Shown here: in pieces, positions 292 to 64,000 of the stretch
Position numbering within the stretch: the stretch's first letter is position 1
How the letters are laid out: each line of letters opens with the position of its first letter
Source of the DNA: Marsupella aquatica
Taxonomy: Eukaryota > Plantae > Marchantiophyta
NCBI GenBank assembly: GCA_973895155.1
Contig: OZ316895.1
Location: forward strand, 6,932,184-6,996,183
Length of the DNA stretch: 64,000 bases
Reading direction: 5' to 3'
The notes under the pieces: model-generated
Seen by the model: the letters and a program-made list of their open reading frames with translations, nothing else
Databases searched by the model: none
What the model was told of the DNA's origin: nothing
Made by a program: the position numbers and the translations under genes

Positions 292-3170
<2,879 letters not shown>

Positions 3171-6326: not shown

Positions 6327-11912
<5,586 letters not shown>

Positions 11913-14378: not shown

Positions 14379-18683
<4,305 letters not shown>

Positions 18684-19225: not shown

Positions 19226-19345
19226 CAAGGTGGCCCACATGGGGAATTATGAGAGTAGTCTCAAGGTGGCCTACAGGGGGAATTATTAGAGCACCAGAGC
19301 AGTCTCAACGTGGCCCACAGGGAGAATTATGAGAGCAGTCTCAAA
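19226..19345 (+). repeat. Three degenerate ~35-bp tandem repeats
   Basis: Unit approx. caaggtggcccacaggggaattatgagagyagtct, present three times. Confidence 0.7.
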
Positions 19346-40515: not shown

Positions 40516-41583
40516 CTCACCAGGAGGGCAAAAAAAGTACCTTGCAGCTGGCAGTCAGGTGCGTAGGAGGGAAAGGAGGGGAGCCTAGGATAGTACCTGC
40601 TGTACTGGCAGACCAGGCATTGCGAGGGCTTCATGGCCGACCCTTATCACATTGATGGCTGACCCTTATTCCCGCATTGATGGCCGACGTGAGGCGTCAA
40701 GCGAGGTCACGGAGCGACGGACAGTATTGCGGGGCATGGGAGGCCTCGCGGAGGGAGGGTGAGTGCTGAATATGAAAAATACCCCAATGAAAATATCTAA
40801 CGGCCAAGTTTAACTCCCGCCAATATTGGATTCTGTAATGGGACAAAGGACAAAAATGGCACCATTGTTTATTATAGTAGTAGATAATGTACTCTAAACA
40901 CGACGTCACTCATTGTATGCAAAAGGCCAAGAATGCTTTAATAGTGTCCACATGTGGGCCTTTAGCTCACTGCATCTTTTTTCAAAGGTGCAAGGGAGAA
41001 ACTGTGGCAGTGTGTGGTGGTCTTGGGGGAAGGGCAGTGATTGGGAGAAGGTGGGAGTGGAGCGCTGAAGCTGGGATGGGAGTACAAAAGACCGACAACC
41101 TCCCCTATCTGCCATCTCTCACAAGCACAGTTTTCCTCTAAAAAGAGGCCTCCACATTTGAGCCCTTACAATTGACTTTTTTCCAAACTGAGAGGGCAGA
41201 TTCAACTGTAATTGTGGTAGTTACAAGGGAAGGCATCAATGAGTGGGAGAGGGCAGGGCCCATCATAATCTTTCAGGTTTTTCCTTATTTGCCTGAGTGG
41301 CAAAGGAGAAGATGTTAGAATATTCTTGATCTAGTTTTTCCAGATTATTTTTTGACCTCTAGATCTCTCTAGATTTAAGGATGACCGTTAGATTCTAACA
41401 AGTGGGGCATGTAACTAGGTGGGAAACTGGCTAACCAGGCACTAACAGAAAACTCAGTAAAAGTTTTGCCAAAATGGCAAAGACTTTTTGAAGAGGTGGA
41501 ATCTAGCAAAAACTTCCGAGAAAAATTCACTACCCAAAAAACACTTGCAAGGGAGAAGGTGTGAGGGCAGAGAATATTATAAT

Positions 41584-44500
41584 TGTAGTTTGCTATGAAG
41601 AACCAAAAATACATTTAAAGGTCTTCAAACTCGGTATTCGTTCCCGTAAAGAACAAGATGGGGTTGGTTTGATAAATTTAAACAATAATAAAGAACTAAA
41701 TATGTTTTCCACACATAGTAATCAAGTTTGATTACTTTACTAAGGTATTTTGAAGATCGCTCCACAGCGGTGAGTAGTTTTCAATGATAACTCAGCATCA
41801 TGTAATCATAAATTAATGAAAAGGGAATGATTAACAAAACACAAGGGAAAATATCTTAAAGTATGCTAACTAAGGGAGCCTGGAATTGACCAAGGTTGCT
41901 CCTTAGACATAAGTGAAAATGAAAAGACTTAAGGATTCAAATCCATATTGCTTTTCAGGTCTAAAATGCTTACTAGAGTACTCCTTTAAAGTGCCGTCAA
42001 CACGTCTTGTCTTTTCTTTCTAAGTGGTACTCAGACAAGATCTAAAAGAGTGACTACTTCAACATTTAGATGGTACTAAGCAACATGAAAGAAAATCCAT
42101 CAATTTCAATAAGGCTTAAACTCAATGAGTTAACTTTAAGAACTCAAGAGATTGCAATGAGTCACCAACAAGGAATCTGTCATTACAACTCAAAAGATTT
42201 GCACAAAAGGAATTTTACTTCCTGTGTTTATAATCATAGGTAAAAACACAAGAAGGAGGTAAGTCTCTCCAAATGTTAAACCTGATCTCGAACTCATAGA
42301 TTCATGATCAACTAGTTTAACACAAGGAAAAGGCAAAAATGCATAACTTAACCATAAACTACACTAGTGGTGAAGGGGTCTTATAGTAAAAATCTACAGA
42401 GTGAGAGGTCATAGGGTCGAAGAGACATGCCTCTTCATACTCCTCAAAAAGTCAAAATAGCAATTCAGCCAGTGAAAAGCTAGAAAAGTGGCTAAGTATG
42501 AACCCGTAAACCCTTAAAAGCGTAAAAGCGTAAAAACGTATAAGCGTAAAAGCGTATTCCAGTACACTTAAAAACTTAGCAAATTCAACTATTTTTAACT
42601 TTCTACTCTTGGTCTGGAAAACTCTGAAATTTTGCCAGCAGGTTTTCCTAGGTACAAACTACCTATTGAAGAAGTCTCATAGCTTTTAAAGCTCTATAAC
42701 ACATTTTGAAAAATAGGGAAAGATGCACTATTCTTAAAACTAACTAAAAACACTTAGACTACTCCTCAAACTTGTTGTCGGATGTCTTCTGGTTCGAGAA
42801 GCTCCACGAGGGTAACAGTCCGAGCTTGAGTAACTTCCATCAGCTCAGCCTGGCGTGGGGATCCTCGAGAGTAGGGTAGGCATCTCAATTGCCTTTCAGG
42901 ATACATCAGGGGCATTCTCTTCCTTAGATAACATATGTCTATTCGAAGAGCTTCTCTATATATCCCAATCACGTCATAATTATTGCAAGTAGCAGCATAT
43001 ATTTGGGGATAATGGTATAGGAATTCATCAGAGTTCAGCATCCTGGAATAGAAAGGGTGAAGCCTCCATTTGACATCTCTGAAATATCGGTTGAAGCTCG
43101 CTAGAGTTTGAGAGGTGACATTGTTCCAGATTCTCTGTTTCTCAACTAATGAACTGGTTGAAACAAGGGTAACCTTGGGCTCTCGAGGAAGGTAAGCGTT
43201 TTGGGAAGAAGTAGATTTCTTACTCTGCATGAGAAAAGAAACCACAAAATCTAGGGCATAAGCTGCCAAATTTCCAAAATATGCCAGGACTAAATCTGGA
43301 TCCTCCACCTCTACATCACCTTGAAGTAGCATCACAGCAAGAATAGGTCGGAAGTAGAGAGAGTCAGTCTAGAACTCATCAAATTGTGCCATCTCCAATC
43401 TGGAAGTTCCAAAACACCTGAGGTCGAAGATATAACTGGCCTCTGTCTTCTTGAGATAGTAGTATTTCCAGAACTCTCCAACCGGTGGTCTGTTGGCCTG
43501 CATAATCTTACAGGTCTCCGCATACCTGTGCACTTGGGACTCTGGATGTCTCGGGTATCTACTCTCGATGGTGGCATTCCGGGGTGTCTGAGTAGATGAG
43601 GTGACAACTGCTACTAAGTTTGGATTGGATCTTAAGGCAGTATCAACATCTTCAAATCCTTGCCTTGGGGATGACTCAAGAGAATTATCATAAGATCTAT
43701 AAGTTTCACCATCTGAGGGTGGATCAGAGTCTTCAAGTAGATCCTCTCTGTCGTAAGGGTGCTCATATTATGACCGATTGTAGGTGGGTCCTTCTGTGGG
43801 TTCGTAGTTGGAATCAGGGCTGTAAGGTTGCGAACCTGGGCTAGGAGTGGGACTAGCAGTTGGACATTGTTGGATCAAGTTGCGGACCACGGATGCTATC
43901 TGTCGAGGTTCACACTGAAGTATTTCTAGCAAGTCATCCACAATGGCCACACAGCTGGTACTATCTGCTACTGGAACAGGTTCACTTGTTTCTAGGGGAG
44001 GGGGCTATACAATGACAGGAGTACAGATCACAAACTCCATTGGTGCTGGTTCTCTTAGGGAAGAGGTCATTCTGACAGGACTTAGCTGATCATGAAATGG
44101 TGATCTCAAACTAACAGCCTCCATTCTCAAATTATTAACAGCATCATACAGTCCATCATCACTGTAACTGAGGAGAGATGTCAACTTATCAATAAGCTGC
44201 TGATTCGACTCTGCCTTCGAAGGAGTGGACCTGGTGGTCACATGAGGAGTAGCATCAGTTGGTGTAGCAACATCGTCTTGTTGATGAATGTTCCTTACTC
44301 CTTCAACTTCTAGTGGATCTGCACCTATGGTCCGACTGGGAGAATGCTCATCACTCATTGGATGGTTATCGACTTCCCTGCTATGCATAGGAGAATGTGT
44401 AGGGACTTCTAATGAAGTATCCTCCATAGGAACATCAGCATTCTCCTCAACGTTCTGATCATTCGAATTCAATGGGGTGACATGTACAATGTCCTCCATA

Positions 44501-45598
44501 GGAATTTCTTCTTCAATACCCAAGTCAATCAGGAGTAACCCCCTCTCTGTCTCTTCCTCCAGATATAAATAGTCATGGGTATAATAGAGCTGAGAGAGAT
44601 AATTCTGTAAGCAAGTGGTCCTCCCTGCTTCCAAGCTCCTTACTTGATCCTTCATTACATTAAACAGAAGTAGGGCCCAATTTACTTTTATAGCTCCACT
44701 GTGAGCAACTACAATGGTGTTAGCCAAGGCCACAGGACAGAGAGTTGGCTTTTTCGGATGAAGAATGGGTACCAGAAATTCCATGAGTACCCTCAATTCA
44801 GGATAAGTACACTGGGACAAGTTCCAACCATTCTTGGTATTTCGAGTTCCTGAGAAGTATGGAGTAGATAAGTCCTGCTTCTTGGAATATAATGCCTCTC
44901 CTTCTGACGGGCATCCAAAGGCGTAAGCAATTTGCTCAACAGTCCACAGGCTGGGGTGAGCTCGAATCGTTCGCCTGAATTCAATCGGGATGATAGTCCC
45001 CTTCACAAAATCCTGCAAGTAGGAGTCGAGCTTGACATTCCAGGGGATCTTGAGCAAGCGCTCCAATCCTAAGTGCTGTAAAGAGTCTTGTAGATTAGAA
45101 AGACTATCAGGCGCTCGTGGTATACGAGCTGCCACTACTTTTGAGACTGCTAGAGCTTCAATTTGATACTGTTCCTCAACACCCAGGTTAGCCATAGCTG
45201 CGACGGTGATTTGCGTGCTGTGAAGGTTGCTTTCGAAGAGAAAGAGCAAGTGAATAGGGGTGGTGAAAATACTGGAGTGATCGCCTGAACTCTGTGCTCA
45301 ATTCCTATCAAGGTATGAAGTCCCCAATCCGTTTCTAAGTCCTGTTGTGAAGTTAGCCGTAGCGCCGTAACGTACACTTTCCGTAAACGTGTAAGGTGTA
45401 GGCCGTAACCCGTATTGGCGTAACTTAAATACCGCGTAAACCCGTAAACCCATAAACGCGTAACTCGTATACGCGTAACTCGTATATGCGTAAACGCATA
45501 ATAGAGTACTTGTAACTAAGTTGGAATAAGGTTTAAACACCGTAAAAAGTTCAAAATTTTCAGTAATTTCAGGTTTTCGGTATTACCCACTACTCACA
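41584..45598 (-). mobile_element. ORF-bearing TG...CA insertion 1 (putative long solo LTR, 4015 bp)
   Basis: ATAAT|TGTAGT...CTCACA|ATAAT (TSD 41579-41583 and 45599-45603). In ORF sense it reads TGTGAG...ACTACA, matching the other two inserts. The TSD is AT-rich, so this call is weaker. Confidence 0.65.
42766..45249 (-). pseudogene. Long ORF of insertion 1 (retroelement accessory protein family), broken by in-frame stops
   Basis: ORF pieces 45249-44005, 43950-43768 and 43335-42766 share one frame. The N-domain (LGLERLLKIPW...IAYAFGCP...KNGW...C...LMEFL...NWA...L..YLSQLY) resembles the ORFs at 52934-53773 and 57634-59502. Confidence 0.65.
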
Positions 45599-45762
45599 AT
45601 AATGTACACTGCCAAAAGACAAGAACACCTAACCGGGAGACATGAGAAGGTGGGAAGACTTGGCAATGACGCCTAGCAGAATATTGGGGATTTAAAAATT
45701 GCCCCATAAGGTATAGTAGAAAACGGTATTCAAAAACAAGTTTTTACTAACCTGTCCCCCAA

Positions 45763-46135
45763 ACTACCCAATATTACTAACATGCACCTCAAACAAAATT
45801 AATTATCAGCCCGGCCCCCATTTCGTATTTGGGTTAGTATAATTAACTTGTGTATGGGTTCCTGTTGCCATGTGGTAAGTTGCTACTAGCTAGCCTTAAT
45901 TTGTCACGACCCCCTTTCCAATCCCTCTGTGTTTTCTCCCCACCAGGACTTGCAACTATGCCCTGCAATGGGGAAGGAGGGGTGAGGAGGTCACGGAGAG
46001 TCAAGGCTAGCCAGCAGCAACTTGCCACATGGCAATGGGAAGTCGCATATGAGTTAATAGTAACCCAAATACAAATGAGGGGCGGGTTATTGATCATTAA
46101 TTTTGTATTGGAGCACACTACTAATATTGGTTAGT
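45763..46135. repeat. ~370-bp imperfect fold-back palindrome
   Basis: 45865-45897 vs 46003-46035 pair at 30/33; outer arms 45763-45776 vs 46122-46135 pair at 13/14; weaker pairing continues toward the centre (~45950). Confidence 0.85.
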
Positions 46136-46609
46136 GTGGAAGCATTTTTCCTGAGACGGGATGGGGAGAATTGGGAGGGTTTATGCTTCTTGAATTGATG
46201 CTAATACAAAAACCTGCTTTTAGGTTGACAAAGTGGATTCTATTTAGAAATGCCCTTGTCTGAAGGGTGCTTACTATTCCTGGATAGAAATGGAGATTTA
46301 GAATTAGGTTATTCCAGCCTTAACATTAAGTGATATGCTCTTTGGAGGGGGTCTATTGTCTTTAGGTATGCCCTGTTGGGCCTCGGGTTCCTTTGCCTAT
46401 GGACTTTCCCTTACTATGGATCCTAGCTTTGGGGACCTGCTGTTGGGCTCTCATCCTTGGTCGTAGTGGACGCTTATTACATAGGCTTTCTACTCTGCCT
46501 GTCTACCCTTTGGTTGCTGGTAGATAGTGGTAGGTTTTTTTGACTTCAAATTGCCCTGTTTTTTATTTGATTTTTTATTTGATTTTAAATGATTTTAGAA
46601 CTTTATTCC

Positions 46610-47050
46610 ATGGAGAACCAGAGAAAGAACAAAAACCTGCCTGGGAGGAGAAGGCAAGAAAGAGCAAGAGCAATTAAGGGGGCAATAAAAGGAGCACACC
46701 CATTGAAGATGAAGGGCAGCCTCCACACCCCGACTGCCAGAAGGGAGGAGGCGGAAGAGAATGGGAGGGAGGACCCCAAGGAGGATAGATTGCTATTCTG
46801 AGAGAAGAATTGCGAGAAGAATTGTGTCCGAGAAAAGCCAAAGAAGAATACATTGGCAAGAAAAAACATCACGGAAACTGAAATGGACTTTGCCATCTCC
46901 ATCCACCACAACCGGCCAGACATTGCTGCCACTACTTGAAACCCATCCTGCAAGGAGACACCTACTTGCCCATCACTAACAAGGGACTCCATCATAGAAG
47001 AAAGCCAGTATCATTATGACGGGGTTCCCGTCACTGAAAATCCTCAATAA
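46610..47050 (+). pseudogene. Possible small basic-protein ORF or terminal exon with two in-frame TGA stops
   Basis: 147 codons from ATG 46610 to TAA 47050, interrupted only by two TGAs; preceded by a T-rich tract ending TAG. No family recognised. Confidence 0.3.
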
Positions 47051-50000
47051 TTGTTTACTGGGTTGTGCCATGTAAATAACCATTGTAAATAAGCCGTTTT
47101 TTTTGTTTTTTAGTTAATTCTGTCATTATCGGTTGCTATGCCCCGGAGGTCTCTACTTACTTTTATATCCTAATAGTTCGGATGGCTAAGGCTCCCCAGC
47201 AAGCAAGACTGTTGGGACCTTTAAAATAGGGTCGGTCTAATCGGACACCCCGTTTCCCTTAGGCCATTATTTCCTTGTTATTTTCTTGAGACCCCAATAA
47301 ACAAGAAGCCTTAAGGGATGAGTCCAAAGCCTTATTTCTCTTTTCAAAATCTTCATGATATTCAAAAATGTGTACCAAAAAACCACCCAAAAATGGTATG
47401 TATTTTCCAAACTAGACTCAAGAGAATTTTACCACCAAAATCTAACCATATCTTATATGATATTCTCACAATTGTATAAACCTTGAAATATGCACTTTAT
47501 AAAAGTAGACAAAATCAAACTCTTCGATCAGAGTTTAAGTCAAACTCAAAGTTTTACAGAATATAACCCAACTTAACCCCAAGTGGTTTCAAATGCTACA
47601 AGTCCCCCTATTTACCTAGTCTAATCCAAAGGGACCGCTTCCCCTTCCTCGGTTCCGGAAGTCCCTGCCATCAATTCTGGAACAATTGTGGCATCGTCAA
47701 CCACGCTATCCTCTCCGGCCTGAGGAATGTCTTCCTCACTATCCTCATCCGTCTCCCCCTGTTTGTCTTCCTCTTCAATGTTATCTGCAAGGTTAAGAAT
47801 CCTCCCTTTCAACACACTGCTCTGTCGCTCGTCAATCTCAATGGCAACGCAATGTCTCCCCATGGCCAAGGAGGAGGTTGTCCCAGTCCCTGATCCTGAA
47901 CAAATATCCAAAACCCAGTCTCCAACCTGACTAAAATGACTCACTTCCCAATCTAACAATGCACGTGGTTTCTGATAGACATTCACTGCCTTGTTATCCC
48001 CGTTGTGTTTCAGCTTCTTAGTCACACCTGCGCATACAACCACATTGTTCCTGGATTCATTTGTGTCAAAATTGAAGTGCTCCAATGACCGTTTACCATC
48101 TTGGCTGTGAAAGCCAATTGTAAAGCACTCAAAGTTGTTGTTCAATCTTGGCCCACCAGCATTCTTCACATTACCCTTAACCCTGAAAAGTCACAAAAAG
48201 TCAAGGAGTCATTTAAACTTAGAAACATGGATCATGAAATCATGAATAACTAATAATTGTTTTTTTCAAAAACAAATATTTCTTACCACACACAATTCTG
48301 GAACCCTCCATTACACTCCACTTTCAAAACGGTCTTGATGGCCTCATATTGGTCAAGGCTATGGTGAATGATAATATGCCACAACTTCGCAGTAGTAGCC
48401 ACCTTGAAAGATTGGATCATTTTTGTGATCTCCTCAATTCCCCATCCAGTAGTGTCCTCATGAAGACATCTAGGCAATGCAAACCTGTAGGGGATATCCA
48501 CTAAAGCTAATGTGTAAGCCCGACCCGGAACCACCTCGTGTAATTGCTGAGCATCATGAGTAAAAATATCATAGTGCACATCACCAAACTCTCGATGCTC
48601 AAAAGAATTTGGATGAAGTTCCCCCTCTTGGGTTTGCCAACTAGAAGTCTTCATGGATAGCCAATTTTGCGCTTGCACAATATGCGCATTGAATTTGTCC
48701 GGGAATGACTTGAGATCTTTGCCTTCCTCATCTCCCTTCTTTTTCTGGGAGGTGGTATCTTTCTACAAAAGGGAACCTTACAATTAGAAACAAGGATTCC
48801 AAATATTCAATGAATTCAAACAATCATTCAAAGAAAGGTGACAGAATCTTACCCATGTCTGGAAACAGGTACGAAATTCTTAAGCACATTGTCTGTGCAA
48901 TGCTCAGGGTACTTGGTTTTACAACCTGACCAACTCTCCTCGTGTAGACACGTGAGGAAGGCCTTCTGCACCTGCATCTGAAATTTGTGTCGAGTAAATT
49001 CCTGACCCATTTCTTGTAAAGAGAGTTCTTTAGTAAGAACTCTCTGTAACATTGGGCAAATCATATCAGGATCTTTCAAGGCCTGCATGTGTCTCCACTC
49101 TGTTAATTTCATGTCCTCATAAGGCAATTTGGCATCTCCAGACTTAGAGACTTTCTTCTTGCCCTTGTCTCCTTTTTGACCTTTGATCTCACACATCTCC
49201 CACTTGTCACAAATCTGCCTCACAAATGACCACACAGGATCTTGTCGGAATGCCAACTGAAATAGGTTATCGTTGGCATTAAGAACCTCAACATCCTTCT
49301 GCACACCCCAATCCTTGAGATTGATTTCAGTAGCACACTCTTTCTTGAAATCCTGGTTGGACGACAATCCATTCTCCACAAATCTCATGTGAATATAATT
49401 TACTCTCTGGATTGTCGTCATTTGTTGTCGAAATTCAGAATCAATATTGTGACTCCACGCCAAGTTTCTTGCCTCTTGCACACTCAATCCTGCAAATATC
49501 CAAGATTGCACTCTCCGAAATGCCTTGTTGTTAGGGAACTGAAGAGCAAGGTCTGATTTGGCACAGGCTGAATGGTTGCCCCCAATCACATAATAATGGT
49601 AATCAGATTTCCTTGAAAAATCAAAGTCTTGCCTAGTAGCACACTCCTTCGGATCCACCAAGAGGACAAATGGAGCTGCAAGTGGACTGGCACCTACAGT
49701 CTTCATCCGCAAGGTCAATTGGGTCAAAAATATGGTTGGATGTGTCAAACCTGGTAAATGGGCAAGCCCACAGCCTTCTCTCTCACTGGAGGGTAAAGTT
49801 GACCAATGTCAACCGTCACGGTCTCCTCTTGAACACCACATCTTCCCAGAATCTCCTCCTGGTACAATACCCGTGCATCCATTGACATTGATTGAGCCTT
49901 TTGCTCCAAATGCGTTGTGGTGCGTCCCATGGCTCCCCAAACACAAGAAACCCCCCGCACAAGCCGATTCCCGCAGGTTTTGTGCTCGACGAGGCCATTT

Positions 50001-50605
50001 CCGTGGCTTAGCGGTATGGGACGCTGCTAACTTCCTTCTACTACTATTATTAACATTTTACACACATATACTGGACAGATCCTTCATCGGGTCATGAGAT
50101 ACGTAGTCGGCCTAATCTAGGCCTTCTCTTGTCTTTCCCTCCTATTGGTTAGGTATATTTGGATTCCGCCGCCGGAATGATCCCCAATTGGCTTGGTTAA
50201 GCCGCTAAGACCTCTCTCAGCTCGACACATCCAACTCTCACTCCCTTGCTTACTTCCCTTCTTCTACTTGTTGATGTGAGCACTCTTCACACAAGTTAAT
50301 GCGACACACAAATAGCAAAATGACTCCTTCTGACTGAGTTATACCATGCACTTGCAATACAAACAGTACGTCTCATACACAAGCTCTGCGAACTAAGCCA
50401 TGAGGCCAACTCTATTCAGTTCTTAGGTATGAGGAAACATGAATATACACAAGGGTCATTGTATAACTAACCGAGAGCTTCTCTTACTACTTGATCCCAG
50501 CCCGGCTGGTGCAACTAAAAACTTGCTAAAGAAGAGGCCCGGAACTCCCCGCAGCCCAGGTACTTATCCTGGCTGTGGATCCGCCTGATTCCTTGCAGCG
50601 TAGGC

Positions 50606-50678
50606 CTAATTTACCTACTGTAATCTACCTAATTGTAATCTACCTAACTGTCATCTACCTAACTGTCATCTACCTATG
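50606..50678 (+). repeat. ~15-bp tandem repeat (tacctaactgtcatc), about 5 copies
   Basis: Visible directly, just downstream of the long ORF in insertion 2. Confidence 0.8.
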
Positions 50679-50863
50679 TATAGCGAGGCAGGAGCACAAG
50701 TGTCGCCCTTACCCGTGGATCCGAAATCCCACTAATCTAAGTGTCAGGGCCATCTCCTGGTCCTGATCCTAAGTCTAAACTTGGAGATCAGTGCCCGCCC
50801 TGCCCACTCATGCCTCCTACCTCCACGTCCGCCCTCCCTAAAAGGGACGGCGCCCTTACACCA

Positions 50864-53800
50864 TCACGACACCGGTGGCTGGTCCTCAATGGACGCCCCC
50901 AACGCTTCCTCCGCAGCCACTGCCGTTGGTCCGTCCTCTGACAGATTACCTGCCCCAGACCGAGTCAACTCTTCATCGGCCTGACTGGGTCCACCCTCGG
51001 CTTCGGCCTCAGCATCGGCCACGGCCTCTGATACGGCTAAGGCCTCCCCGATATGTTCTAGTGGAGGATCCGGTACCTCGGCAGCATTACTGGTTTTCCC
51101 GGCCTCAACCTTGCCATCCCCACTTCCTAGGACTGGTGGATCCACCGCCATGTCGATGCCAGAGGTTGGTGCCAGGTTTACCTTCTTGGTCACAACGGCT
51201 TGAGAAGCCGTATAACTCCCAGACCCAGAAGGTTTCCGCTTCTTCTTCTTCCCTATTTTGACAGCCGGTTCCTTCCCCTTGCCACTTACCTCCGGCACCG
51301 GGGTGAGTGTCTCGGCTTGTCCTTCGGCCAATACTACCCCCGGTAACTGGGTTCCCCCAATTGGAGTTGGACCTGATGAAGCCAAGCATTTAAATACTAC
51401 GGCTTGTTTCTTCAGCCGCTCCGTTTGGTTGTCGGCCTGCCGTTGTAGGTTCTCCATCTTCCTCGTGATTTCCTCCAACTCCTCCTGGGTCTCATCCAGG
51501 TCCTTGCGCGCCTCCTCCAGCTCTTTATTGGCTTCCTCCAATTCTTTCTTTAAGGTAGCCCTCTCCTCCTGGGTTGCTCTTAGCTCCTTGTCGAGCTCTG
51601 CTACGACCACAGACTCCATCTTATTCATCTTGGCATAAGTCTGGTCGAGCTGGTCGTCCTTTTCACGCAAGTCGGCCTTGAAGCTGGCCGTCAGGGATGC
51701 AAGCTCCTGCTGCAGCGCAATAATCCCTTGATAGGATTTCCCTAACTCTGCTTCCTTTTGCTCAAGGGCTCCGCGGATATCTTCGAGCTCTCCTTTCAAC
51801 GCCCTCTCCCTTCTCTGAGTCTCCGCCATGGTCCGGTTGTTGGCGGTTAAAGGGGCCTCCTCTATGTCCCTTAGCTCCCGCTTCCATTTCTCTCTTTCTT
51901 TGACTGCGTCGGCCAACTCTCCTTGGGTCCGAGTCAGTTTATCTTTCATAATCTGATTGTCAGACTGAGCGGTATCCAACTGCCCCTACATGATGTTTAG
52001 CTCATGCCGCTTAATCCGCAACTCATCTTGGGTTTTCTTGGCCGCCTTCAGGTCTTCCACCTCGGCTTCCATCTCCCTAAGCCGTCGGATGACCTCGTCC
52101 TTCTTGCTTCTTTCCAAAGCCACCGCTTCTTCTAATCGGTGCTTTTCCAACATCTCCCTCTGGAAAAAGGGTCCCTGCTCCAACTCCTCCCCAAAGATGC
52201 TAAGCGCCAGGTCCCCACACATCTCCCCGTACTCCATGGCTCTATCCTTAGCATAGGTGGAGTAACTAGAAGTCATCGGCATCAACCACCACGGCCTCTG
52301 GTCCCAAGCCGCCTTGCGGATTTCTTCTACGGTGGCAAGAGGGTTGCTTCTTTTTTCGGCAAGCCGCCTGATGTCCTCCGGCCAATCTCCTCCTCGTAAA
52401 TCTTTCTCCCTAGCCAGGGCTGCTTTCTCTTTCTCCCTAAGTCGCTCCTGAAATTCTTGTGTCGTCTGCTTTATGCCGTCAAAGCTCGGGGGAGCAACCT
52501 CTGGTGGGGGAGCCTCGGGGCTACTCTGCTGGGTGGGGTCCCCTCGAACTACTCTTGGAAGTGTGGGGATAAATCGGCCATAGGTCCTTACTCTTGGAAC
52601 ATGATGATCCGACCCATAGCCGGAGTTATCATTGCTGTAGTCCTCCACCACCTCCTCCACTACTTGGACTCCCGACTTCTCCCTTTGTTCCCCTGGTCCT
52701 GTCGTGAAAACGGCCTTACAGATCATGGGCTCTGGTTCCTCTGGTTTCCAGGCTGTCGTCTCCCTGTTCTTTCCGCGGGGAGGAGCCTTTGGCTGCTCTG
52801 CCTCTGATTCGGGGCTTGAGGCTCCCACGTACCTTCGCACTCCCGGCTTGTGTTCTGGCCTAAATCTCTCCTTGGTTCCGGTAAAGGGGTCTTCCCTTCT
52901 GAGTCGGCTTAGGCCAACCTCTGGGGCAGCATCCTATATCGATGCCGTTGCCATTGCCGGAACCAGTGCCGATGCCGTTCTCTTTTCCTTCTCCAGCAAT
53001 TTCAGCAGATTTTGCATGCCTGGTTGCTGCATCGGCAAGTCTTCTTTCCTTGGCCGAAACACCTGCTCGATCGTCGGACTATCAGGCTGGTTGGGCTTCT
53101 CTGGTGCCGGCCCTTGCTCCGTAACCTCCTCTGGTGCCCTTGCCGATAGGGGAAGTACTGGGGCAAAGATTTGACTTCTGGCATACCAGCACAACAGTGG
53201 CATGTGATAGCCAAGCCGGGACACGCTTCCCATGCCGATCACCTGCTGTTCCTCCTTCAAGATTTTCTTTAGTTGGTTGAGGAGGTACCCGTTGTAATCC
53301 TGGCTTGGGTCTGGCCTTTCTGCCAGGTAGACCTGAGCCTTGCCGATCTCTGCCCTCGGCAAGTTACAGTGCATGGTCACCCGCAAGAAATCGATCATCT
53401 CTCCGATGTGCGGGTTGGTGTAGGTGTTCCAGAAGAAGCCATTCTTCGTTGATGGTCCTGGGAACGACCGGAATTCCTTGTCAGGTAAGGTCTTCCTGGT
53501 ATCAACCTTGGTCTTATTACCCATCGGCAAGCCAAACACCTCGGCAATCACCCGGGGAGTGAGAAAGAAATCCTTCCCATACACCCTCGTGGAATTGGTC
53601 TCGGGTTCCCATGATCCCACAAATTCTAATAAGTCTGAGTCCGGCACCTCCGGCTTCAGCCATGGTAATCTTACGAAGGCTTCCAAGCCGGATCTGGCCA
53701 TGAAGCCCTGGTACTTCTTGGTCTGCATGGCCGTACAGCATGCATCCTCCTCCCGTGCAAAGTGTAATTGCACTTCCTCCGGTAGGGTCGCCGCCCAGCC

Positions 53801-53990
53801 TTTCCAGGTGTCATCGTTTGTTGGAATGGCATTGATGGGATTGACCTCTTCCTCTTCGGCTTCTCCCTTTGTCCTGCTCTGCTGGCTTCCTAGGTGCCGC
53901 CGACCTCGTTCTTTTTGCCGGGGTGGCCTCCTCGTTGTTGTTTCCTTTCCTCTTCATCTCGGCTGCCGTGGATGTTTCTCCTAGCAAGGT
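50864..53990 (-). pseudogene. ~1000-aa ORF of insertion 2 (conserved N-domain, Pro/Glu linker, long coiled coil), split by in-frame TAG stops
   Basis: ORFs 53773-52934, 52840-51986 and 51979-50864 are in one frame, separated by TAG codons. N-domain GLEAFVRLPW...EFVGSW...VYGKDFFLT...VFGLP...KNGF...IDFLRVTMH..PRAEI. A separate 113-aa ORF lies upstream (54027-54368). Confidence 0.75.
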
Positions 53991-55613
53991 TGCCTTCGTC
54001 CACCCCTCCATGTTACCCTTCAACTCCTAGTGTAGGTTGTTGCAGCAATTGATGGCTTCCCGGATGCCGATGATTCTATTTTTGCAAAATAGAAGGTCGT
54101 CGAGCTGATTGGCAGTAGGAGTCCACAAGAACTTGGCCTTGATAAGTTCTCCTCCTAAGAAAGCCGTCTTCTGCAGTTCCCAGAGCCGAGCGAGCTCCTG
54201 CCATTCTCGAGCTGCTCTCTCTGATTCTTCGTCCTCGTAAGTCCTGACGTACTCACTTGCCCGTTCGAACAGGCATCCCCAAAAATGTGCCGCTTGATTG
54301 ACGTTGCTCATACCCTCCTTGAGTCGATTGTTGGTATCTGTTCCCACCCCGAGTGCTTGCCTAAGCAACTGACAATATTTGGCCCCCCGTAGTTGTCTGC
54401 CCAGTTCGTTCTTGCAAATGAGCCACTATTCCTCGCAAGCGGTCCTTACCCCTCTCCTCCTCTGGTCTTCCCTCCCGTTGGTCACCCCTAGCCGCCGACG
54501 CTTAGCGCGCCCTAACCCTAATTGTGTTCTCTCCCCCGACATCCTTACTTCCGGCCTCGGCCCGGGTTCCATAGTCACCCTTAATTGTTTAAATTTTCCT
54601 TGTTTTTGTTCCTATACTAAGGTGTTTCCAGGGTACACTCCTACTTTACCATGTAAACCGGCCTAGTGATTCCTGGCTAGGCATCACATGCGTCAAAATT
54701 TTCTCCAAAGTCTTCTTTTTTGACTTTGGAGCACTGGGCTTGGCAGGCTCAGGAGTCATAGCAGGTCACTTCTTTGAAGAAGTACGAGTTCCAGTCGTAC
54801 CTTTCCAACCCACCTGTCAAAGCCGTTCCTAGGGATGATCTGCCAACTTGAGATCCCCCTCCAGATGCTGCTACTTCACGGGAGGTTGTAGGCGCTACCA
54901 CGGTCAAAATGTCATCGGGTAAAATGCTAGGCCTGGATCCAGAAGGAACACCGGAAGCCCCAGATTTGGGAGGACAACTTACCCCCTTCTCTGCCGATCT
55001 TTTTCGGAGAATCTCTCGTGATTTTCGGATTGCACTCTTTAAAGTGCTAGCGTGGAATTCGAACACAAAATCGGAAATCTTTCCTGCGACGTCGTGGTAA
55101 CGTTCCTCACTCGAAAGAGACTTGACAATCTCAATGATGCTATCGATGTCCTCATCGAGATAGAAGGTGGCAGCCGTTCTAGAAAACCTCTCCACATCCA
55201 CCACAATCAAAGTTGACATTTCCTTCGTTGTGATCAACATGTTCACAACTTCGTCTCCCTTCGAAATACATCAATACGGCCATAATTGACCCACCCTAAT
55301 GCCCCCGATGGAAGCCCCTCAAATACACACAACATTAGGAAGGGCTTCTTCCATGTTTCCGTCCCTAAGGAAATCGTCCAGGATGAGTTGTGGAAGTCCG
55401 TCAAAGGATGGCGCGAAAAGATGTCATCCACCAGCTCTTCCTGTGACATTGTCATGTTCTCGCCTGATCTTTAAAACCTGAAAACATACCACAAAATCAG
55501 TCCACTTCAACCCCAACCTGCGAGATAAAGTGCCATAGAACCAAAGAATGTGCCAACAAATGGCTACTAAAGCCGTGTCCTTATGGATCTAACAATGCTC
55601 TCGGCCACCCCAG

Positions 55614-56160
55614 GACTCCTACCATGAATTCATGAAGGGAGTCTCCCTCTTGCACCGACCTTCATGAATTCATGAAGGGAGTCTCTTCTCTCTTTGCATG
55701 TACACCTTGGAGATTCAGAAGGGTATTGAAAATGGGGTGCGGAGGGAGGGTGATGTGAAGAAATCTCCCAGGGTCTAAATTACTACCTAAAATAGGGTCG
55801 AAATGAAGCGCGACCACGATAACTTGCGACACATCGCCGATGAGTGCTGAAAATGGCACGAAATTGGACAGCGAGATTGTTTTTCACTCTTTTACAAAGG
55901 AAATCCAAATGACATCGAGTGAAAATGAATGTGCTACCCCGTGTTACTTGGTTATACATACTAATCATGGATCAGGCGCGACTTAGTAAAATTAACACCA
56001 AATCATGATAAATCAATGTTTTCGAGCCAATTATTCATGAATATTTTGGCGTATTAACGAGAAAAATTTCATGAATTTCATGAATATCTGATATTTTGAA
56101 GTTAAGAAGTCCCGACAATCCGTGAAAAACTATAAATAGGCTCGTTTATTCATGACTCTT
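55614..56160. promoter_or_regulatory. Divergent promoter region with clustered CATGAATTCATG/TTCATGAA palindromes and a TATA box
   Basis: Imperfect 30-bp palindrome at 55614-55643, perfect 20-bp CCTTCATGAATTCATGAAGG at 55659-55678, TATTCATGAATA at 56032-56043, TTCATGAATTTCATGAA at 56068-56084; TATAAATA at 56131, about 100 bp before ATG 56236. Confidence 0.6.
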
Positions 56161-56635
56161 GGTCATTATTTTGAGGAGATTTGTTAGATTTTACTAATTT
56201 TCTTAGTTTCTTGTCAATTTGCACTAGTTTTTCCAATGGCGGCATGTTATGAATCAGATGATTATTCAGATGGAGTTTCTGATGATGTTTCATTGCCGGA
56301 TGGCCCATGCACAGTGGTTGCCCTAGATATCCCTAGAATAACTACTATTTTAGATATGCCACCCCCACCCCTATGAGCAAGTTAAAACGTACTCCTTTAC
56401 GACTTGCAATTAGTGGGAAGAAATCATTGGTCGGTGGTAAGGAGAGGTCAGGGAGCTCCTCTGACTCCTTGGAGAGTATCGGTCCCCCTGGACGTCAAGT
56501 TGTGTCTCCTTTGTCACCAACAAAGGACAATTTGGGTAGTAATGTGGAAGGTTCAATGTCTATTGGGATGTCTGGGAAACGGTCTCATGAATTCATGAAG
56601 ACTGGATTTGGAAAGACGAAGAAGGCACTAAGTGG

Positions 56636-59600
56636 TGTGACACGGGTAACGTGTCACTTGACCGAACCCAGGTCGTAGATTAGGACTTATACGGTCATTA
56701 GGACCGTAGCCATAGTGTAGAATAGCACGTATAGCCGTCTATTGCCATTATGATTAGATTAGGAGTAGGTTAAGATGATCGAATCATTACGAGTTCAGGA
56801 AGGGGATTATTACGCGCGACCGAGGTACGGTGGCGGCAGCGGAGTAAAAATCAGTTAGAAGAATCACGCTTGGACCGAGGCGCCGACTTCAGCTCGCTAT
56901 CAATGACCAAAACGGCCTGGCCTTCTCACGCTCGGGCTCATCCTGGCACCTTCATAAGAGAGGAGCCGATGGTGCTGCGGGCCATTTGCTCATGTCTACC
57001 TTTCTTTGAATTCGCGGACGTTGCCACCCACTCGCCCTGCTGATCGAATCGAGTCGACCTTTACAAGGAGATTATCGAGGGAGAAGAGCGGAATGTGGCG
57101 AGATTTAGTCAGGACGAGCGAGGCCTCCACGAGACAGAGGACCAGCCGGGTGGGAACGCGGACTCAACGAACTGGACTATGAGGTTAGTATGACCCTCAC
57201 AGCCTTGGGATTTTGGACCTTGTTTGGTGAGGTAGGTGCTAAGTTCTCCGAGACTTACTGGTACTCTTCCCCCGAGAAAGCCGCTTACAAACGAAGGTAC
57301 GCAAAGCTGGTAACCAAGGTAGCACTGGTTAATTGCAAAAGGACAGCCATCACCAGGGATTCTAGCTACAACGAGCTGTGAGACTACATCACCGAACTAT
57401 ATCTCAGCAAAGAAGGGCTTAGATCGGTAGCAGAGGCGATTCTTGAGGTTCCAACGAAGTTCTTTAAGCTGAAGAGCAACCAACGGCTTACTCAAGCGGA
57501 GTTCGACAAGATTCTGGGGTACCTAGACCAGCAGATTGCAGCCAAAAAGCGCCAGGAAGACATCAGCAGACAACGGGAAGCGGCGCGTAATCTCACGTTC
57601 CTTGGGGAAAGCTCCAACGCCTTCAACTGGGATATGGCTACCCCGATACCACCAGTGCCTCAACCAATGACCACCGGAGTACCGCCGAACCAGTCCCAAG
57701 TCCGTCCAGTAATCAACACGGAGTGTTCTTCAGGTTCCGAGCGAGCTAGTCCGCAACTCAAACAGCATCCTCGTAAGTGGCCAAGGACTACGACGGCCCC
57801 CGAATCAACACGGACCGACGCAGCGCCTACGCCTGCCCTGCCAAACCCCCCGACCAACCAGACCCGACGGCCCCTGGATAACCCGAAGTCCAACTTATTA
57901 CAGGTAATCCGCGTCCCCGAGGTAGTCTGGATCGCGATCAAGAAACTCAAACATGCAGACTATCTCAAGGAGCATCAGTTGGAGCGGTTTGCCCACTTGC
58001 TATGGAGGCCGTGCACCACCGGGCCAAAGGAGATTTGTGAGTTCATCTCCAATTTCGACACTGACGCGTCGACCACCAAGGTTTCGGGGCAAGCTTTATC
58101 ACTCACGGAGCATCGGTTAACGCAAATCTTCTGCCTACCAACCGGGCCGGTGCCGGTGGAAATCCAAATTCGGGATAAGGAGTATACGCCGCGGCACTTC
58201 AAACCTGAGGGTAAGACGGACAACGGATACAAGCAGGGGGCGTGCACCAACTTAACCTGTATGGAGCGGCTTAACTTCATACAGACTACCCTACACATGA
58301 TTGAGCCACGATCCGAGATTTCCCTCTGCACGATCGTGCAGGTGGAACAGTACAAACGACAAAACTGGGCCCAATTCTTCTACCAAAGATTCTCGGGGGA
58401 GCTGAAGCGGGCTCAGGGTGGTATGGCTATTGGGGGGAAGACTTACTTGGGAAGTCATATCGCCATTATCCTCGCCTGGTACAAGGCACGGCGGGAGGCC
58501 AAAGGAAAGAATATGGCCACCTCAGCCCTGGGTAATGTCACCCCCACCCCAGAGGAGGCAACCCCGACTACGCGGACTACCGTCCCTCGGGCAAACCCCG
58601 AGCCGGAAGCCCCGACTAATACTCCGCCATCGCCCCCTGTGGAAATTCCACCGCCCCCTTCCGTCGAGCCTCCGCTATCCGCAGTACAACCACCCCCAAT
58701 CCCTCCACCACCTGAAGAGACCTTCCCCTCCCCAACGCTGACTACGGAGGAGCTCATTGCCCCTGCCGAGGAACCACCGGTACCCGAGAAGATGGAGGAC
58801 TACCAAGTAGCCCAGGGGACCATGGCCTACGACCTGGTCCAGAAGTTTAGCCACACTATGTCTGGGGAGCTGGCGGCGTACATCGGACAACAAGTCTCGG
58901 CGTACTTTCAACCAACCTTCTTCATGTTAGAGCACCAACCACGGATCGTAAGCCACCTGGAAGAAGAACTCATGGCGAAGGGGAATGAGATCGGGCGCCT
59001 CCAGATGTTGGTAGAGCACCTCGAGGAGGAGGCAACAACCAGATGTGAGGAGTTAGTCCGCACCGTCGAACAGAGGGACGGACTAAACCAGGAGTTAAGC
59101 GGAGCGCAGGTCGAACTCAAGAAGCTGGATGACACCGTGCTTCAATTACGCTCAGAATCTTCGGCTCGGGTTACCAGCCTGACCGACCTCAACAAACAAT
59201 TCCTGCAGATAGCACAGCAGGTGGCTAGTCTCTCCGCCGAACGAGATAAATTGCTAGCGCAGGACCAGGTCCATCGCGACGCCATCGACCAGCTCAACTT
59301 GGAGGTAGCGCGGCTCCAGACCGAGGCCGATGAAGCTGCAAACAAGGCGGAGGAAGCAGTACGGGACAACAAGGCTTTGCAGGACCGCATTACCCTGCTC
59401 ATCCTCCAACGGGGAAAACCTGGGCCCACCTTTGATCAAGGCGGCTCGAGGTCTCGTCCCGACAAGGGGACCAGCCCTGGTCCAACCACTGCACGCACGT
59501 AAGGGGTAGTTAGCAAAGGGTGGAAGCAGGCGCCGCGCGAGGCAGTTAAGTCAGCGACATCTTTTGGTTAGGCGTAACGATAGAATGACTGTCATTAGGC

Positions 59601-60484
59601 GCCGATTAGCGGCAGTAAGAAGAATTAGGGCCAGATCAGTTAGGATCAGCCAACGTAGGATAGAGTCCATCAACGGACTAGAATTTGTCAGTAGGATTGG
59701 CCGCTGCCATCCCGGTCAGCACCTTGTCGTCGACGGTCAACCAGTCAGTACGGCGCGACTAGTAGTCAGTAGGTAGTTAGTCAGTAGGTAGTATCCCGGA
59801 AGGCAGTATCCTCTGGCTCTCCTCCGCGATTGTAGTATTTAGGCTTCCCCTTCCGCTAAGGAAGGGGAGAAGGCTTAGTTATCTCAGCAGAGGGAAGGTG
59901 AGGCACGGGGAGTCCTGGCCTGAGCAGGGTCAGAGTGCACCAAGGAGTGAGAGCCAGAGTCGAGCTTGCTGGGCAAGTGCGAGGCAGGGCCTCGTAGAGA
60001 CTGGGCATCGACTGCCGTTGGGCCTGCTGACCCCCTTTGAAGTCGAGTCAACCATGTAAACTGATGCTTTGCTGAGTAAATGTAGTCTTTTCCCCCTAAT
60101 GTTTCTGCAAGTAACTGGTGTTGTGTGTATGCTTTGTCTGGGTAAAGGCGCCATTTTAAGGGACGTACCGGGTGCGGACTAATGGTAGGGATTGCCACTC
60201 ATTGTATGTCACAAGGTCCTGTCGTGTCGATGGCTTGAAAGGCCCCAAGCCGGGAGTTAGTCCGAGTCACTAACTGAGGGAATATTCCAGCGGTGGAAAA
60301 CAAATATACCTATGACTAGTACGAATTATTCAGGTGTTATACCGGTAAGTATATCGACTTAGCCCGACTTAGGGCTAATTGAGGTCACTACACACCTCCT
60401 TGCCCGAACCCCTCACCCTTACTGGTGGTCGAGGTCGCACCATGGCACTAAACTGGATTTAAGGCCCAGGTTAGCGGCACGACA
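56636..60484 (+). mobile_element. ORF-bearing TG...CA insertion 3 (putative long solo LTR, 3849 bp) inside the transposase gene
   Basis: AGTGG|TGTGAC...ACGACA|AGTGG (TSD 56631-56635 and 60485-60489). Excision restores the host frame. No internal terminal direct repeats and no gag/pol seen. Confidence 0.92.
57634..59502 (+). CDS. Intact 622-aa ORF of insertion 3: conserved N-domain, Pro-rich linker, coiled coil
   Basis: LERFAHLLW...EFISNFD...KVSGQALSLT...IFCLP.G...NGY...LNFIQTTLH..PRSEI...NWA...YLGSHI aligns by eye with the 279-aa ORF at 52934-53773; heptad-rich C-terminus. Confidence 0.8.
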   Translation: MATPIPPVPQPMTTGVPPNQSQVRPVINTECSSGSERASPQLKQHPRKWPRTTTAPESTRTDAAPTPALPNPPTNQTRRPLDNPKSNLLQVIRVPEVVWIAIKKLKHADYLKEHQLERFAHLLWRPCTTGPKEICEFISNFDTDASTTKVSGQALSLTEHRLTQIFCLPTGPVPVEIQIRDKEYTPRHFKPEGKTDNGYKQGACTNLTCMERLNFIQTTLHMIEPRSEISLCTIVQVEQYKRQNWAQFFYQRFSGELKRAQGGMAIGGKTYLGSHIAIILAWYKARREAKGKNMATSALGNVTPTPEEATPTTRTTVPRANPEPEAPTNTPPSPPVEIPPPPSVEPPLSAVQPPPIPPPPEETFPSPTLTTEELIAPAEEPPVPEKMEDYQVAQGTMAYDLVQKFSHTMSGELAAYIGQQVSAYFQPTFFMLEHQPRIVSHLEEELMAKGNEIGRLQMLVEHLEEEATTRCEELVRTVEQRDGLNQELSGAQVELKKLDDTVLQLRSESSARVTSLTDLNKQFLQIAQQVASLSAERDKLLAQDQVHRDAIDQLNLEVARLQTEADEAANKAEEAVRDNKALQDRITLLILQRGKPGPTFDQGGSRSRPDKGTSPGPTTART

Positions 60485-63400
60485 AGTGGGCCAAATGACG
60501 GAGATTTTTGCAGTCTCCAAAGTGTTCAGCGGCTGAAGCAAATGCCAAAAAGTAAAACCTTTGGTAAGCCAACGTCGGAAACATTTCACAGGGGAATGAG
60601 GGAAGAAACTAGACAACCAGTGTTATTGAAAAGTATTCCAGAAAGGAATTCTAATGTGTGTTCCTCATTTTTACCTGGGAGTCATGGTGTTGGGGCAGGG
60701 AGCGGATCAAGTCACGGAAACTCAAACAGGGAAACCAACCTGGTGGAGAGGGCCCCTAGGAAAATATTGAAAGGGTCCTTACACGGTAATGGAGGGATTT
60801 CTGAAATACGCCCAGGTATTCCAAGGCTGCATAGAGTGAAGGAAGAGCCTCCATCTCCGAAGGCTGCAGGTCTGGAATCTCGGGATGTTCAGAAGAAAAT
60901 GTTGGTGACCATTTCATCATCGAATGATAGCGAGTCTTCGGAGAGTGAGGAGGATGATGATGTTCCAGTGGCATCTAGTCGTTACAAACGTACGAGCAAC
61001 GCCACTTTGTGTGAAACAAAGTTGAAAGAGGAGGATATCAAGAAAACAAATAGTAAGTACTGTTGTTAGAGTCATTGTCTCCTAAGTCTATCTCCAAAAG
61101 AAATTCGTGAGGCGCGTTCTAAATTTTTGAGGTAGAAATCTCAGGATCGATCTTTATCTTTGTAGTGGCTTATAAAGCAAGACGGAAATGAAGGAGGGAG
61201 GCAAACTATATCTCACACGTTTGGTCAAAAGAGTATTTATCAGAAAGCTTTCAAGCTTATATTTTGCGTTGGCAATCAGAGATTAAATAGAATTTTGAAA
61301 TTAGACAACCAAGACTTAGGATATTCTAAACCAGTTGGACACCCTCCAGCTGTTAAAAGATTAGTCTTGGTCAGTTGGCTTAGGTCATTTTTTGAGACAC
61401 GCGTGGAAACATTGCCAAATAAAGAAGTTTCACATTTACCGAGTAATTATTCAAAGCTGGAGGTATGAAAGATCTACGATTCCAACCATGCCAAGATTGA
61501 TGAATCATCAAAAATATCCTATCGACAATTCTTGAAAGTTTGGGCTCAAGAATTTGGTCATGTGAAGATTCCTCCAGTCAGTCGATTCAGTGCTTGCGCG
61601 GATTGCGAGGAGTTCAAATCAATTCGGGACAAAGCTGTCTCGGAGACCGAAAAAAGTAAGTTACTTACAAGTTTGACAAGTTTTTTGTTTCAAGAATATG
61701 GCTTAGCACATGATTTCTATTTTTTTGAAGAAACTAACAAGTTGTTTTTCCAGGGCGAGGGGAGATTATGTTACAAATACATAGAGACCAACAATCCAAA
61801 GAACGTGAGAAACTCGCAAAGCATCGTAAGAAATGATTTTCAAATCCTGATAAATATTTGGGAGTTGTCATTGATGGGGTGGATCAGAAGAAGACAAGGT
61901 TGCCTCATTGGCCGCGTCCCCCAAAATCGGTGGACGAAACATGTTTGATCCAAATGCACGTTGTCGGATGCCTGGTTTTCAATGATGCACTATTTTCAAG
62001 AGTATTTCTTAATTATCCTGTATTGCATAATGATGGAAACTTGACAGTCACAATCCTGCAAAGGGTGTTTCACGAATGGGAAGAAAAGCCTGGTGGCTTG
62101 CCGCCTGTTCTCTATCTTCAACTTGATAATACCAGTAGAGAAAATAAAAATAATTTACTCTTTGCCTATCTTCATATGTTAATTCGAAGAAAGGTTTTTC
62201 GGAAAATCAAACTAGGATTCTTGTTGGTTGGACACACACACGACCAAATAGATCAAATGTTCAGTCGATTTTCTAAACGACTAGCAAGGTTTAAGGCATT
62301 CACATACGAAAGCCTATGTGATATTATTTGCGAATCATATCAACCCCAACCAAATATCACTCTTTTAAAGGAAACATATGATTTCCGTCAATATGCCTTC
62401 TTAGATCCACCTTTAGTCATTGAAAGGATTTGAAATGTTACCTTCCACCACCAGTACAAATTTGCACTTGACAAGTTGGAAGATCAAGTTCCAACCCAAT
62501 GGGGGAAGAAGTTTTCCACGGACTCAACTTGGAAACCTGACGGAGGCGTGAAATTTTTAGGGAAGAGGAGCCAGAAAAGGTGATGGGTTGTGCTCCCGGA
62601 TTACCCCTTTTCAAAAAGGGGGATAAGAACGTTACAAGGACTCAACCAAATATGTCTAGTTCTTCAAGAATGACTTTGAAGGAGATGGATGATTCGTTAA
62701 ATGAGATTCAAAAGGGAATACTTGCAGTTGAAACTTTATTCTCAGAAGAGGAAGTGAACTGGTGGAGAATGTTTTTTGAAGAGCAGTGGGAATTGAATAA
62801 ATCCTTGCTCCTTGATCAAAGACCATTGATTTTCCCTTTTCAATGGCCATGTTCCCAAGGGGAGATTGCTGTTGCTGCTGAAGTTCCCAGAGTCCTTGTC
62901 AATGAAGAGGAAATTGAAGAGAGAGTATACGGACCTACCAGAGATATATACGTGGGTCCTTATCGGAATCAAGGAAAGATAGATGCAGAGAAGGAGAATA
63001 TGGAAGGAGACTTTTCCGATCTTGAAGTCAACACTTATATTTCTGTTGCTAGAGATGTTGTCAACTTTTCCTTTTTCAAATTGCCTTTACCACTTATTCA
63101 TGAATTCATGGTTAAAGTTTCTTGAGAAATTTTTAGTTTAATATTTTCTTAGTGGGTTGTGTTTCAATTCAATTGGATGGTGTCATTTCTATCCTCCTTG
63201 TCTTCTTTTCACAATAATGTGTATCAGGCTAAGTTGTAGTAGTTTATTTTCTGGTTTTTAAATGACAATGGCTTTTGGAGGTGATTTAGTTATCGGTTCA
63301 AGAGACAGCTCGTGTAATTGTGAGACCATTGTAGATAATAGTGTTGTATTTGAGGTCATTTATTGGTGGAATGTATTTTCAGATAAATTTGGTCATTTTT

Positions 63401-64000
63401 AGGCTATCAAAACATAGCTAGTTTATGTCATATTTTGTTCGCTCCATATTTTTGTTCTAAAATAGGTGCTAATTTTGGCACTTTTTCTGACTTTTTCGTT
63501 GTTTTTCTGATTTTTTGGCTAGAGTTCCTAAAGTATGGGCTTGTTACTCATCATTTAAGGCTTCTTGTTAATAGCCAGGTCGCGGTGAGGGGTGCTTTGG
63601 TGTGTTGTTTTGAGTATTTAGGGGGAGAGCCCCGTAGTAGTGAGGGGGGGAACTCAGTCTAGTGTTTGCTTAGGGAAGTTAGCTCATAGCCAGAATAGGG
63701 AATCAAGCCAGAGTAGTGAGGTAAAGGTGTAGCACTTGCCCCAGTGAGGCAGTAGTTGTACAGACGGCAGGAGACCGGGTTGTCCTTGCAATGTGTTACT
63801 ACGTTTTGCCAAAAGATATGGATTTGGTTTGATTCCTCAAGTTTTGGTGTTACCTTTTCTGGTTCACAATTGTGTTCTTTCCCCAAGAAGCGTCTAAGGA
63901 ATCCTTGCACGGTTTGGTCAACCATGTGAGTAGGAGGGGTGGTGATAGCACTCCACCAACAACCAGTAGGAGTGTGTGTGTGTGTGTGGCGTAGTCCATG

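Follow-up and report, generated by a model that had tools for sequence, protein, structure and literature searches.

Can a land-plant transposon carry, next to its transposase, an enzyme that marks the transposon's own DNA? The question is raised by a 64,000-nucleotide stretch of the liverwort Marsupella aquatica (contig OZ316895.1, positions 6,932,184 to 6,996,183 of the forward strand; here called the window, to whose numbering all coordinates refer). An initial annotation, made from the letters alone, had described a gene for a DDE transposase lying head-to-head with a gene for a ParB-fused, bacterial-type DNA amino-methyltransferase (MTase), and had proposed that both belong to one mobile unit. 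We find that the locus, 47300-63569, holds the decayed remains of one copy of a repeated, Sola1-like cut-and-paste transposon in a land plant. With a probability that we put at about 0.6, its accessory ParB-MTase protein binds palindromes of the element itself, TCATG-N4-CATGA, and is predicted to methylate adenine there, which would tune or shield the element.

Ends, genes and copies of the element

The initial annotation reported that the termini of the element could not be found, but they exist, at 47300 and 63569. An imperfect inverted repeat (47297-47331 and 63538-63572) resolves into a terminal inverted repeat (TIR) that is perfect over 15 bp and imperfect over about 32 bp, with its left copy at 47300-47331 (plus strand, starting AACAA) and its right copy at 63538-63569 (minus strand, ending TTGTT). 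The end analysis places AATA on either side as a 4-bp target-site duplication (TSD; 47296-47299 and 63570-63573). Among the 142 perfect inverted pairs of at least 12 bp in the window, two are flanked by a 4-bp duplication, and the 47300-63569 pair, which brackets exactly both genes, is the only one of these two to reach 15 bp. In addition, a single public contig matches the sequence at about 85% over 47071-47299 only and loses its fit beyond, at the same boundary base as the TIR. We therefore place the left boundary at 47299/47300 on the strength of the TIR and TSD together with this one contig. Once two nested insertions are cut out, the element measures 7,638 bp.

Within these ends, start codons at 55455 on the minus strand and 56236 on the plus strand lie head-to-head, 781 bp apart. 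Both genes are in pieces, the plus-strand gene running from 56236 to about 63125 and the minus-strand gene from 55455 to 47621. The earlier proposal, that excising two TSD-flanked insertions would restore two divergent, spliced genes about 780 bp apart, is borne out by the TSDs, by public contigs that skip both insertions (joins 49917>54697 and 56629>60484), and by tblastn with intact relatives, which stays in frame across the joint when the insertion in the minus-strand gene is excised. The transposase gene consists of a 5′ part that starts MAACYE and contains an early stop (56236-56635, plus) and a remainder with several stops and frameshifts, whose introns are predicted from GT-AG signals only (60490-63125, plus). 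Its identification as a DDE transposase holds: a six-frame reading recovers the motifs IDGVDQ, LQLDN..RENKN and GHTHDQIDQ, and Pfam DUF7869 matches 61837-62430 (E 1.4e-49), with the catalytic core at about 61927-62394 on the plus strand. When relatives of this core were searched for in viral contigs, none was found. The window copy is dead, as the initial annotation had recognised, since stops and frameshifts break both genes, and it could serve only as a target in trans.

These three aspartate motifs and the DUF7869 match suggest a place for the transposase beside Sola, provided that DUF7869 corresponds to the Sola transposase. The termini, AAC..GTT, are of the Sola1 type seen in Sola1-1_Ec32 and not the GGCGG of Sola2-1_Ec32, one example of each having been compared. 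Sola transposons are described, in the part of the source available, as having 4-bp TSDs, TIRs of 11-1124 bp and sizes of mostly 2-9 kb, with moss examples (PMC10741241), and the element agrees with this in its 4-bp TSD, its TIR length and its size without the insertions.

The element is also repeated. Depth was followed over 44500-64000 by aligning contigs of four runs that had been found through the MTase gene, the summed depth being no copy number. In one run (X3) the left flank had a depth of about 1,500, whereas the MTase gene reached 18,100-19,900, the spacer between the genes 11,100-11,600 and the transposase gene 16,100-21,900; in a second (X4) the corresponding values were 470-740, 4,250-9,300, 4,400-6,000 and 5,200-6,600; a third (X6) gave a profile like the first, and the fourth (X5) was noisy. 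Both genes are about tenfold deeper than the flank, and the spacer and transposase gene rise together with the MTase gene although they were not used as bait. A metagenome scan then gave five loci related to the accessory gene (L001-L005). At L002, a ParB exon 69% identical to that of the window lies head-to-head with an open reading frame (ORF) that starts like the plus-strand gene of the window: 15 of its first 21 residues (71%) are identical, a score reached by 0 of 5,000 shuffles, and the spacer DNA of the two loci aligns with a score of 100, where shuffled sequence reaches 49 at most. Because the TIR and TSD enclose both genes, depth is similarly raised over both, and a second head-to-head copy exists, we consider it very likely that both genes belong to a single Sola-like transposon, in line with the mobile unit first proposed.

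The accessory gene and its relatives

The accessory gene sits inside the TIRs and runs opposite to the transposase gene, all of its parts reading on the minus strand. Its first exon begins with a frameshifted 5′ part (54694-55455) encoding an N-terminal domain of no Pfam family and a low-complexity linker, and continues in a 3′ part with frameshifts and one in-frame stop (48853-49915), which encodes a predicted ParB/Srx-fold domain (IGGNH) and a helical domain. There follow a GT-AG intron (48763-48852) that lies in the same place in L001 and L002, and at which relatives P0001-P0007 lose their match; a middle exon (48287-48762) for the N-terminal half of the MTase, with the catalytic motif IV, DIPY; a second GT-AG intron at a conserved position (48183-48286), likewise shared with L001 and L002; and a last exon (47621-48182) for the C-terminal half of the MTase (QKP; motif I DICSGSGT, within VLDICSGSGT) and an acidic tail. 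The order DIPY, QKP, DICSGSGT puts motif IV ahead of motif I, the permuted arrangement of beta-class enzymes. Together with a Pfam N6_N4_Mtase match at 47624-48190 (E 1.3e-8; 35.5 bits, with the cut-off at 26.7), this agrees with the class originally assigned.

In the case of the ParB domain, the expectation was met in part. Profile searches, from which N6_N4_Mtase, DUF7869 and a ParB-like family had been expected, returned the first two; no Pfam ParB match was obtained on the window piece, on 7 relatives or on 52 long relatives, and the fold was seen on the model of a relative. Structure models were built for relatives at about 24-39% identity. On that of P0089 (66 alignment rows), Foldseek matched Noc, ParB and KorB (best E 1.4e-5), and VIA-align returned PadC (Z 9.1; root-mean-square deviation 3.2 over 100 residues), a serine kinase (Z 8.6) and sulfiredoxin (Z 8.0). 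A ParB/Srx fold in the accessory protein is thereby supported, through the one model on which it was seen. The model of a Riccia protein matched beta-class MTases, with CcrM closest (E 1.9e-11) and rotifer N4CMT a good structural match too (E 3.1e-8). In a sequence search of the PDB, the nine best matches (E 1e-12 to 4e-9) included no named N4C enzyme, such enzymes appearing at E 3.6e-4 or worse, and N6-methyladenine (6mA) is favoured over N4-methylcytosine (4mC) as the predicted product.

Motif counts across the family were made on rows among which are redundant members of clusters and some few prokaryote-like matches. Motif IV opens with D in 81 of 86 rows, and with S in 2 of 86. QKP is kept in 94 of 115. 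This D, QKP and the glycine-rich S-adenosylmethionine (SAM) motif are all conserved in plants, animals and protists. The CTP-binding motif of ParB is the arginine-rich GxxRxxA; at its place, GGNH stands in 60 of 102 rows, with variants elsewhere.

Intact first exons of relatives (n = 7) encode 616-658 amino acids (aa) at 55-68% identity to the window, last-exon relatives number 25, and a profile search returned 148 cluster representatives with E values no higher than 1e-30. The named relatives, from 20 matches that were checked, come from Chara braunii (3), Riccia sorocarpa (4), Ginkgo, Ceratopteris, Ptychodera, Holothuria and Cavostelium, with several divergent paralogues in Riccia and Chara. 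A fusion to DUF7869 occurs in none of the 52 long relatives, and relatives of the ParB region were absent from the viral contigs and prokaryotic genomes searched. In a quick tree of the 76 rows, out of 221, that cover 150 or more MTase columns, computed without bootstrap and with almost no prokaryotic rows, the window clusters with L001, L002, Riccia, Ginkgo and Ceratopteris (22 rows; Shimodaira-Hasegawa-like approximate likelihood ratio test, SH-aLRT, 96) and Chara falls outside, a pattern that would fit long vertical descent in plants.

Some members stand apart. L003-L005 are AT-rich (31-36% GC) and carry more distant ParB-MTase genes (41-49%), with DIPR or DIPH at motif IV, like the Ginkgo protein (DIPH); L003 is surrounded by the remains of retroelements. 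The hemichordate, sea cucumber and amoebozoan members (P0110, P0124/P0219 and P0206) have the eroded motifs DVPN, DMPQ and DLHS. P0158 has a SAM (sterile alpha motif) domain ahead of the helical region and may be a fused gene model.

The novelty implied by the initial annotation was too high. The design is already published for algae, and the window element is a land-plant addition, not a new kind. In the part of its description available (PMC12477816), Sola1-1_Ec32 of Ectocarpus pairs a Sola1 transposase, closest to Physcomitrella Sola1, with an opposite-strand gene for a ParB-like plus N4C/N6A methyltransferase protein, in that domain order; a self-modification hypothesis is offered, and transposons of green and red algae are cited as encoding similar proteins. 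It resembles the window element further in having a 4-bp TSD, with a bias towards A as the last base, and in its termini (AACCG-CGGTT, against AACAA-TTGTT here), and differs in its length of 21.5 kb and its 282-bp TIRs, against 7.6 kb and 15-32-bp TIRs here, and in belonging to a brown alga rather than a land plant. The two are likened by description, the available part of which mentions no conserved palindrome.

Other systems share single traits. The Plavaka (EnSpm) transposons of Bostrychia, as far as the partly available source describes them, carry PF01555 methylase and ParB-domain genes (the accessory genes PAG2 and PAG3) and have inverted-repeat arrays proposed as ParB binding sites (10.1101/2025.02.11.637652), but they belong to another transposase superfamily, distribute MTase-SET and ParB-2-oxoglutarate (2OG) oxygenase fusions over separate genes, and have tandem arrays where the window element has a few dispersed palindromes. 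Phage fusions of ParB_N and N6_N4_Mtase share this domain order and are the closest named clusters in the ESM Atlas (scores of 0.86-0.87, leads only), whereas the window gene is eukaryotic and spliced, with extra N-terminal and helical regions, and the phage matches span the MTase part alone, at 21-44% identity in the 15 of 60 matches listed. MpDN4MT1a/b of Marchantia and bdelloid N4CMT are also prokaryotic-type beta-class amino-methyltransferases in eukaryotes, but, in the portions of their descriptions that were covered, they are host genes with an SPPY motif (TSPPY in MpDN4MT1), shown 4mC activity and no ParB (no additional domain or a chromodomain), unlike the transposon-borne window family with its D at motif IV. 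The idea that such an element was a vehicle for plant methylases like MpDN4MT1 finds no support here. Finally, DAM-carrying DIRS and long terminal repeat (LTR) retrotransposons encode prokaryote-like adenine methylases proposed to self-mark, but they are retroelements with an NPP-type Dam domain, and the part of the source available reports DAM-LTRs to be absent from Streptophyta (10.64898/2026.05.21.726589).

Our literature search, with Repbase, Iyer 2011 and some supplements outside it, returned no land-plant report of a ParB-methylase transposon, and the parts of Iyer 2015 covered, which exclude its supplement, contain no such plant clade. As far as the sources at hand go, these transposons have been described briefly and in algae, with hypothetical target sites and activity. 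What is added here is the exact ends and anatomy, a plant-wide family and a candidate site, TCATG-N4-CATGA, conserved across three elements, and a site this specific makes the self-marking idea directly testable.

The palindromes and their possible role

Matches to this palindrome were counted with at most one mismatch and compared with shuffles. There are 11 in the window against 3.1 expected, 6 in L002 against 0.36 and 3 in L001 against 0.17, and in each case no shuffle gets there; the three exact matches in the window are all within the element. Their arrangement recurs as well. The window element, L001 and L002 each have, upstream of the MTase gene, a pair spaced by 40-42 bp, at 55622-55635 and 55662-55675 in the window, and each have one in the corresponding MTase intron, at 48232-48245 in the window. 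The window (56585-56598) and L002 have palindromes in the 5′ part of the transposase gene, and a copy with one mismatch lies at the 3′ end of that gene (63098-63111). The central four bases vary between elements. The spacer between the divergent genes (55456-56235), which is likely to be a bidirectional promoter, contains TCATGA half-sites at a density of 8 per 776 bp, whereas the left flank has 0.34 per kb. To judge from this conservation, the palindrome is likely to be a binding or methylation site.

In the self-marking reading, which we prefer, the ParB-plus-helical part would bind the palindromes as a dimer, its targets being the pair upstream of its own gene, the one in its own intron and the others in the transposase gene. 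The MTase would write 6mA in or near them, and binding and marking together would set the state of the shared promoter, either tuning the element's own expression or shielding the element from silencing by host 5-methylcytosine. To our knowledge, land plants have been reported without abundant 6mA, and an enzyme that writes it would bear on the disputed existence of enzymatic DNA 6mA in this group. A wider proposal is tentative, and we consider it rather doubtful as a whole: that an ancient Sola1 lineage, extending from charophytes to liverworts, ferns and gymnosperms, has kept a site-specific 6mA writer with a CATG-based operator, which marks its own copies only. If true, land plants would possess an enzyme that truly produces DNA 6mA, and a self-contained, bacterial-style operator-methylase switch would be running a eukaryotic transposon.

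Several observations weigh against self-marking. Head-to-head copies, whose recurrence the initial annotation had expected, turned up at one of the five metagenome loci, L002, which ends ahead of the DDE core. The degraded L003 has some 2.7 kb of sequence upstream of the part that matched, and no transposase match; L001, L004 and L005 have upstream sequence too short to show a pairing; and the DDE core is reached in 0 of the 5. The structure models represent relatives and not the window protein, and the CTP-binding arginines of ParB look replaced in the family, so that a ParB-type clamp is not assured. As for the enzyme, N6_N4 domains have changed repeatedly between 6mA and 4mC, according to the part of the source available (PMC8885841), and related Dam enzymes borne by transposable elements (TEs) gave no 6mA in E. 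coli, in a report likewise available in part (10.64898/2026.05.21.726589). Motif IV often departs from the canonical form: 54 of 86 rows have D-x-P-Y, 20 of 86 have DPPY exactly, and the window has DIPY, so that some family members may be weak or dead enzymes. Lastly, the palindromes could be transposase sites.

This last point leads to the alternative that survives best, although we judge it unlikely: the palindromes would serve the transposase or a host factor, while the ParB-MTase would methylate broadly or elsewhere, perhaps producing 4mC. The palindrome copies within and just past the transposase gene speak for it, as does the structural match to rotifer N4CMT. However, the full palindromes lie at least 460 bp inside the element, away from the termini, and in three elements they are concentrated upstream of the MTase gene and within its intron, and the S of motif IV is confined to the two rows noted above.

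Somewhat less probable still is that the accessory protein does bind the palindromes and regulate the element, but that its methylase domain is weak or inactive and acts chiefly in dimerisation or DNA contact. Positions 2 and 4 of motif IV do vary widely (DIPY, DVPY, DAPY, DFPC, DIPH, DMPQ), and other TE-borne adenine MTases were negative in heterologous tests, as reported in the partly available source (10.64898/2026.05.21.726589), but the D of motif IV, QKP and the SAM motif are retained across plants, animals and protists, the first two at the frequencies given above, and DPPY is often retained by the most distant members. That the MTase gene is a host gene, a once-captured passive cargo or a mere neighbour of the transposon is very improbable, since the pairing seen at only one other locus and the L003 MTase gene with no transposase in reach have to be set against the TIRs and TSD that enclose both genes, the depth that rises over both together, the divergent paralogues in Riccia and Chara, and the like pairing in the published brown-algal element (PMC12477816, available in part).

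Nested insertions and surrounding sequence

Turning to the two nested insertions, both have TG...CA ends. The first (49916-54688, minus) contains one long broken ORF, and the second (56636-60484, plus) contains a 706-aa ORF related to it (26% identity over 204 aa, E 4.6e-19); each ORF ends in a coiled coil. Their TSDs are TGCGT (49911-49915 and 54689-54693) and AGTGG (56631-56635 and 60485-60489), 5 bp each, although a 6-bp reading fits the letters too. Neither insertion shows a pair of terminal repeats, despite the LTR-like ends and 5-bp TSDs, and a Pfam scan of both ORFs gave no family above the cut-off. They are possibly giant solo LTRs containing a gene, or else another type of element. 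Depth over the first is extreme, reaching 620,000 in run X3. A 430-aa ORF at 44008-45297 (minus) is weakly related to both insertion ORFs (E 7e-5 and 1e-3) and is bracketed by short repeats of 8-bp period near 42500 and 45450; its region is probably a third element of this kind.

The window as a whole is land-plant nuclear DNA, with subtilase, glucanase (GH17 and X8) and 2OG-oxygenase genes and with GT-AG introns. An Rfam scan of 40000-64000 gave no match. The subtilase gene is duplicated in tandem about 8.77 kb apart (200-4300 and 8980-12900). Diverged copies of a short repeat lie in opposite orientation 21 kb apart (20471-20769 and 41181-41435), around the 2OG-oxygenase and GH17 genes. A larger element bounded by this inverted pair (20471/41435) was considered and rejected, as host-like genes lie between the two and no transposase was seen there. 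Just left of the transposon, at 45759-46140, about 140 bp are duplicated locally in inverted orientation with 76% identity, and about 30 bp past the right TSD another high-depth repeat begins with a TG-type start (about 63600-64000).

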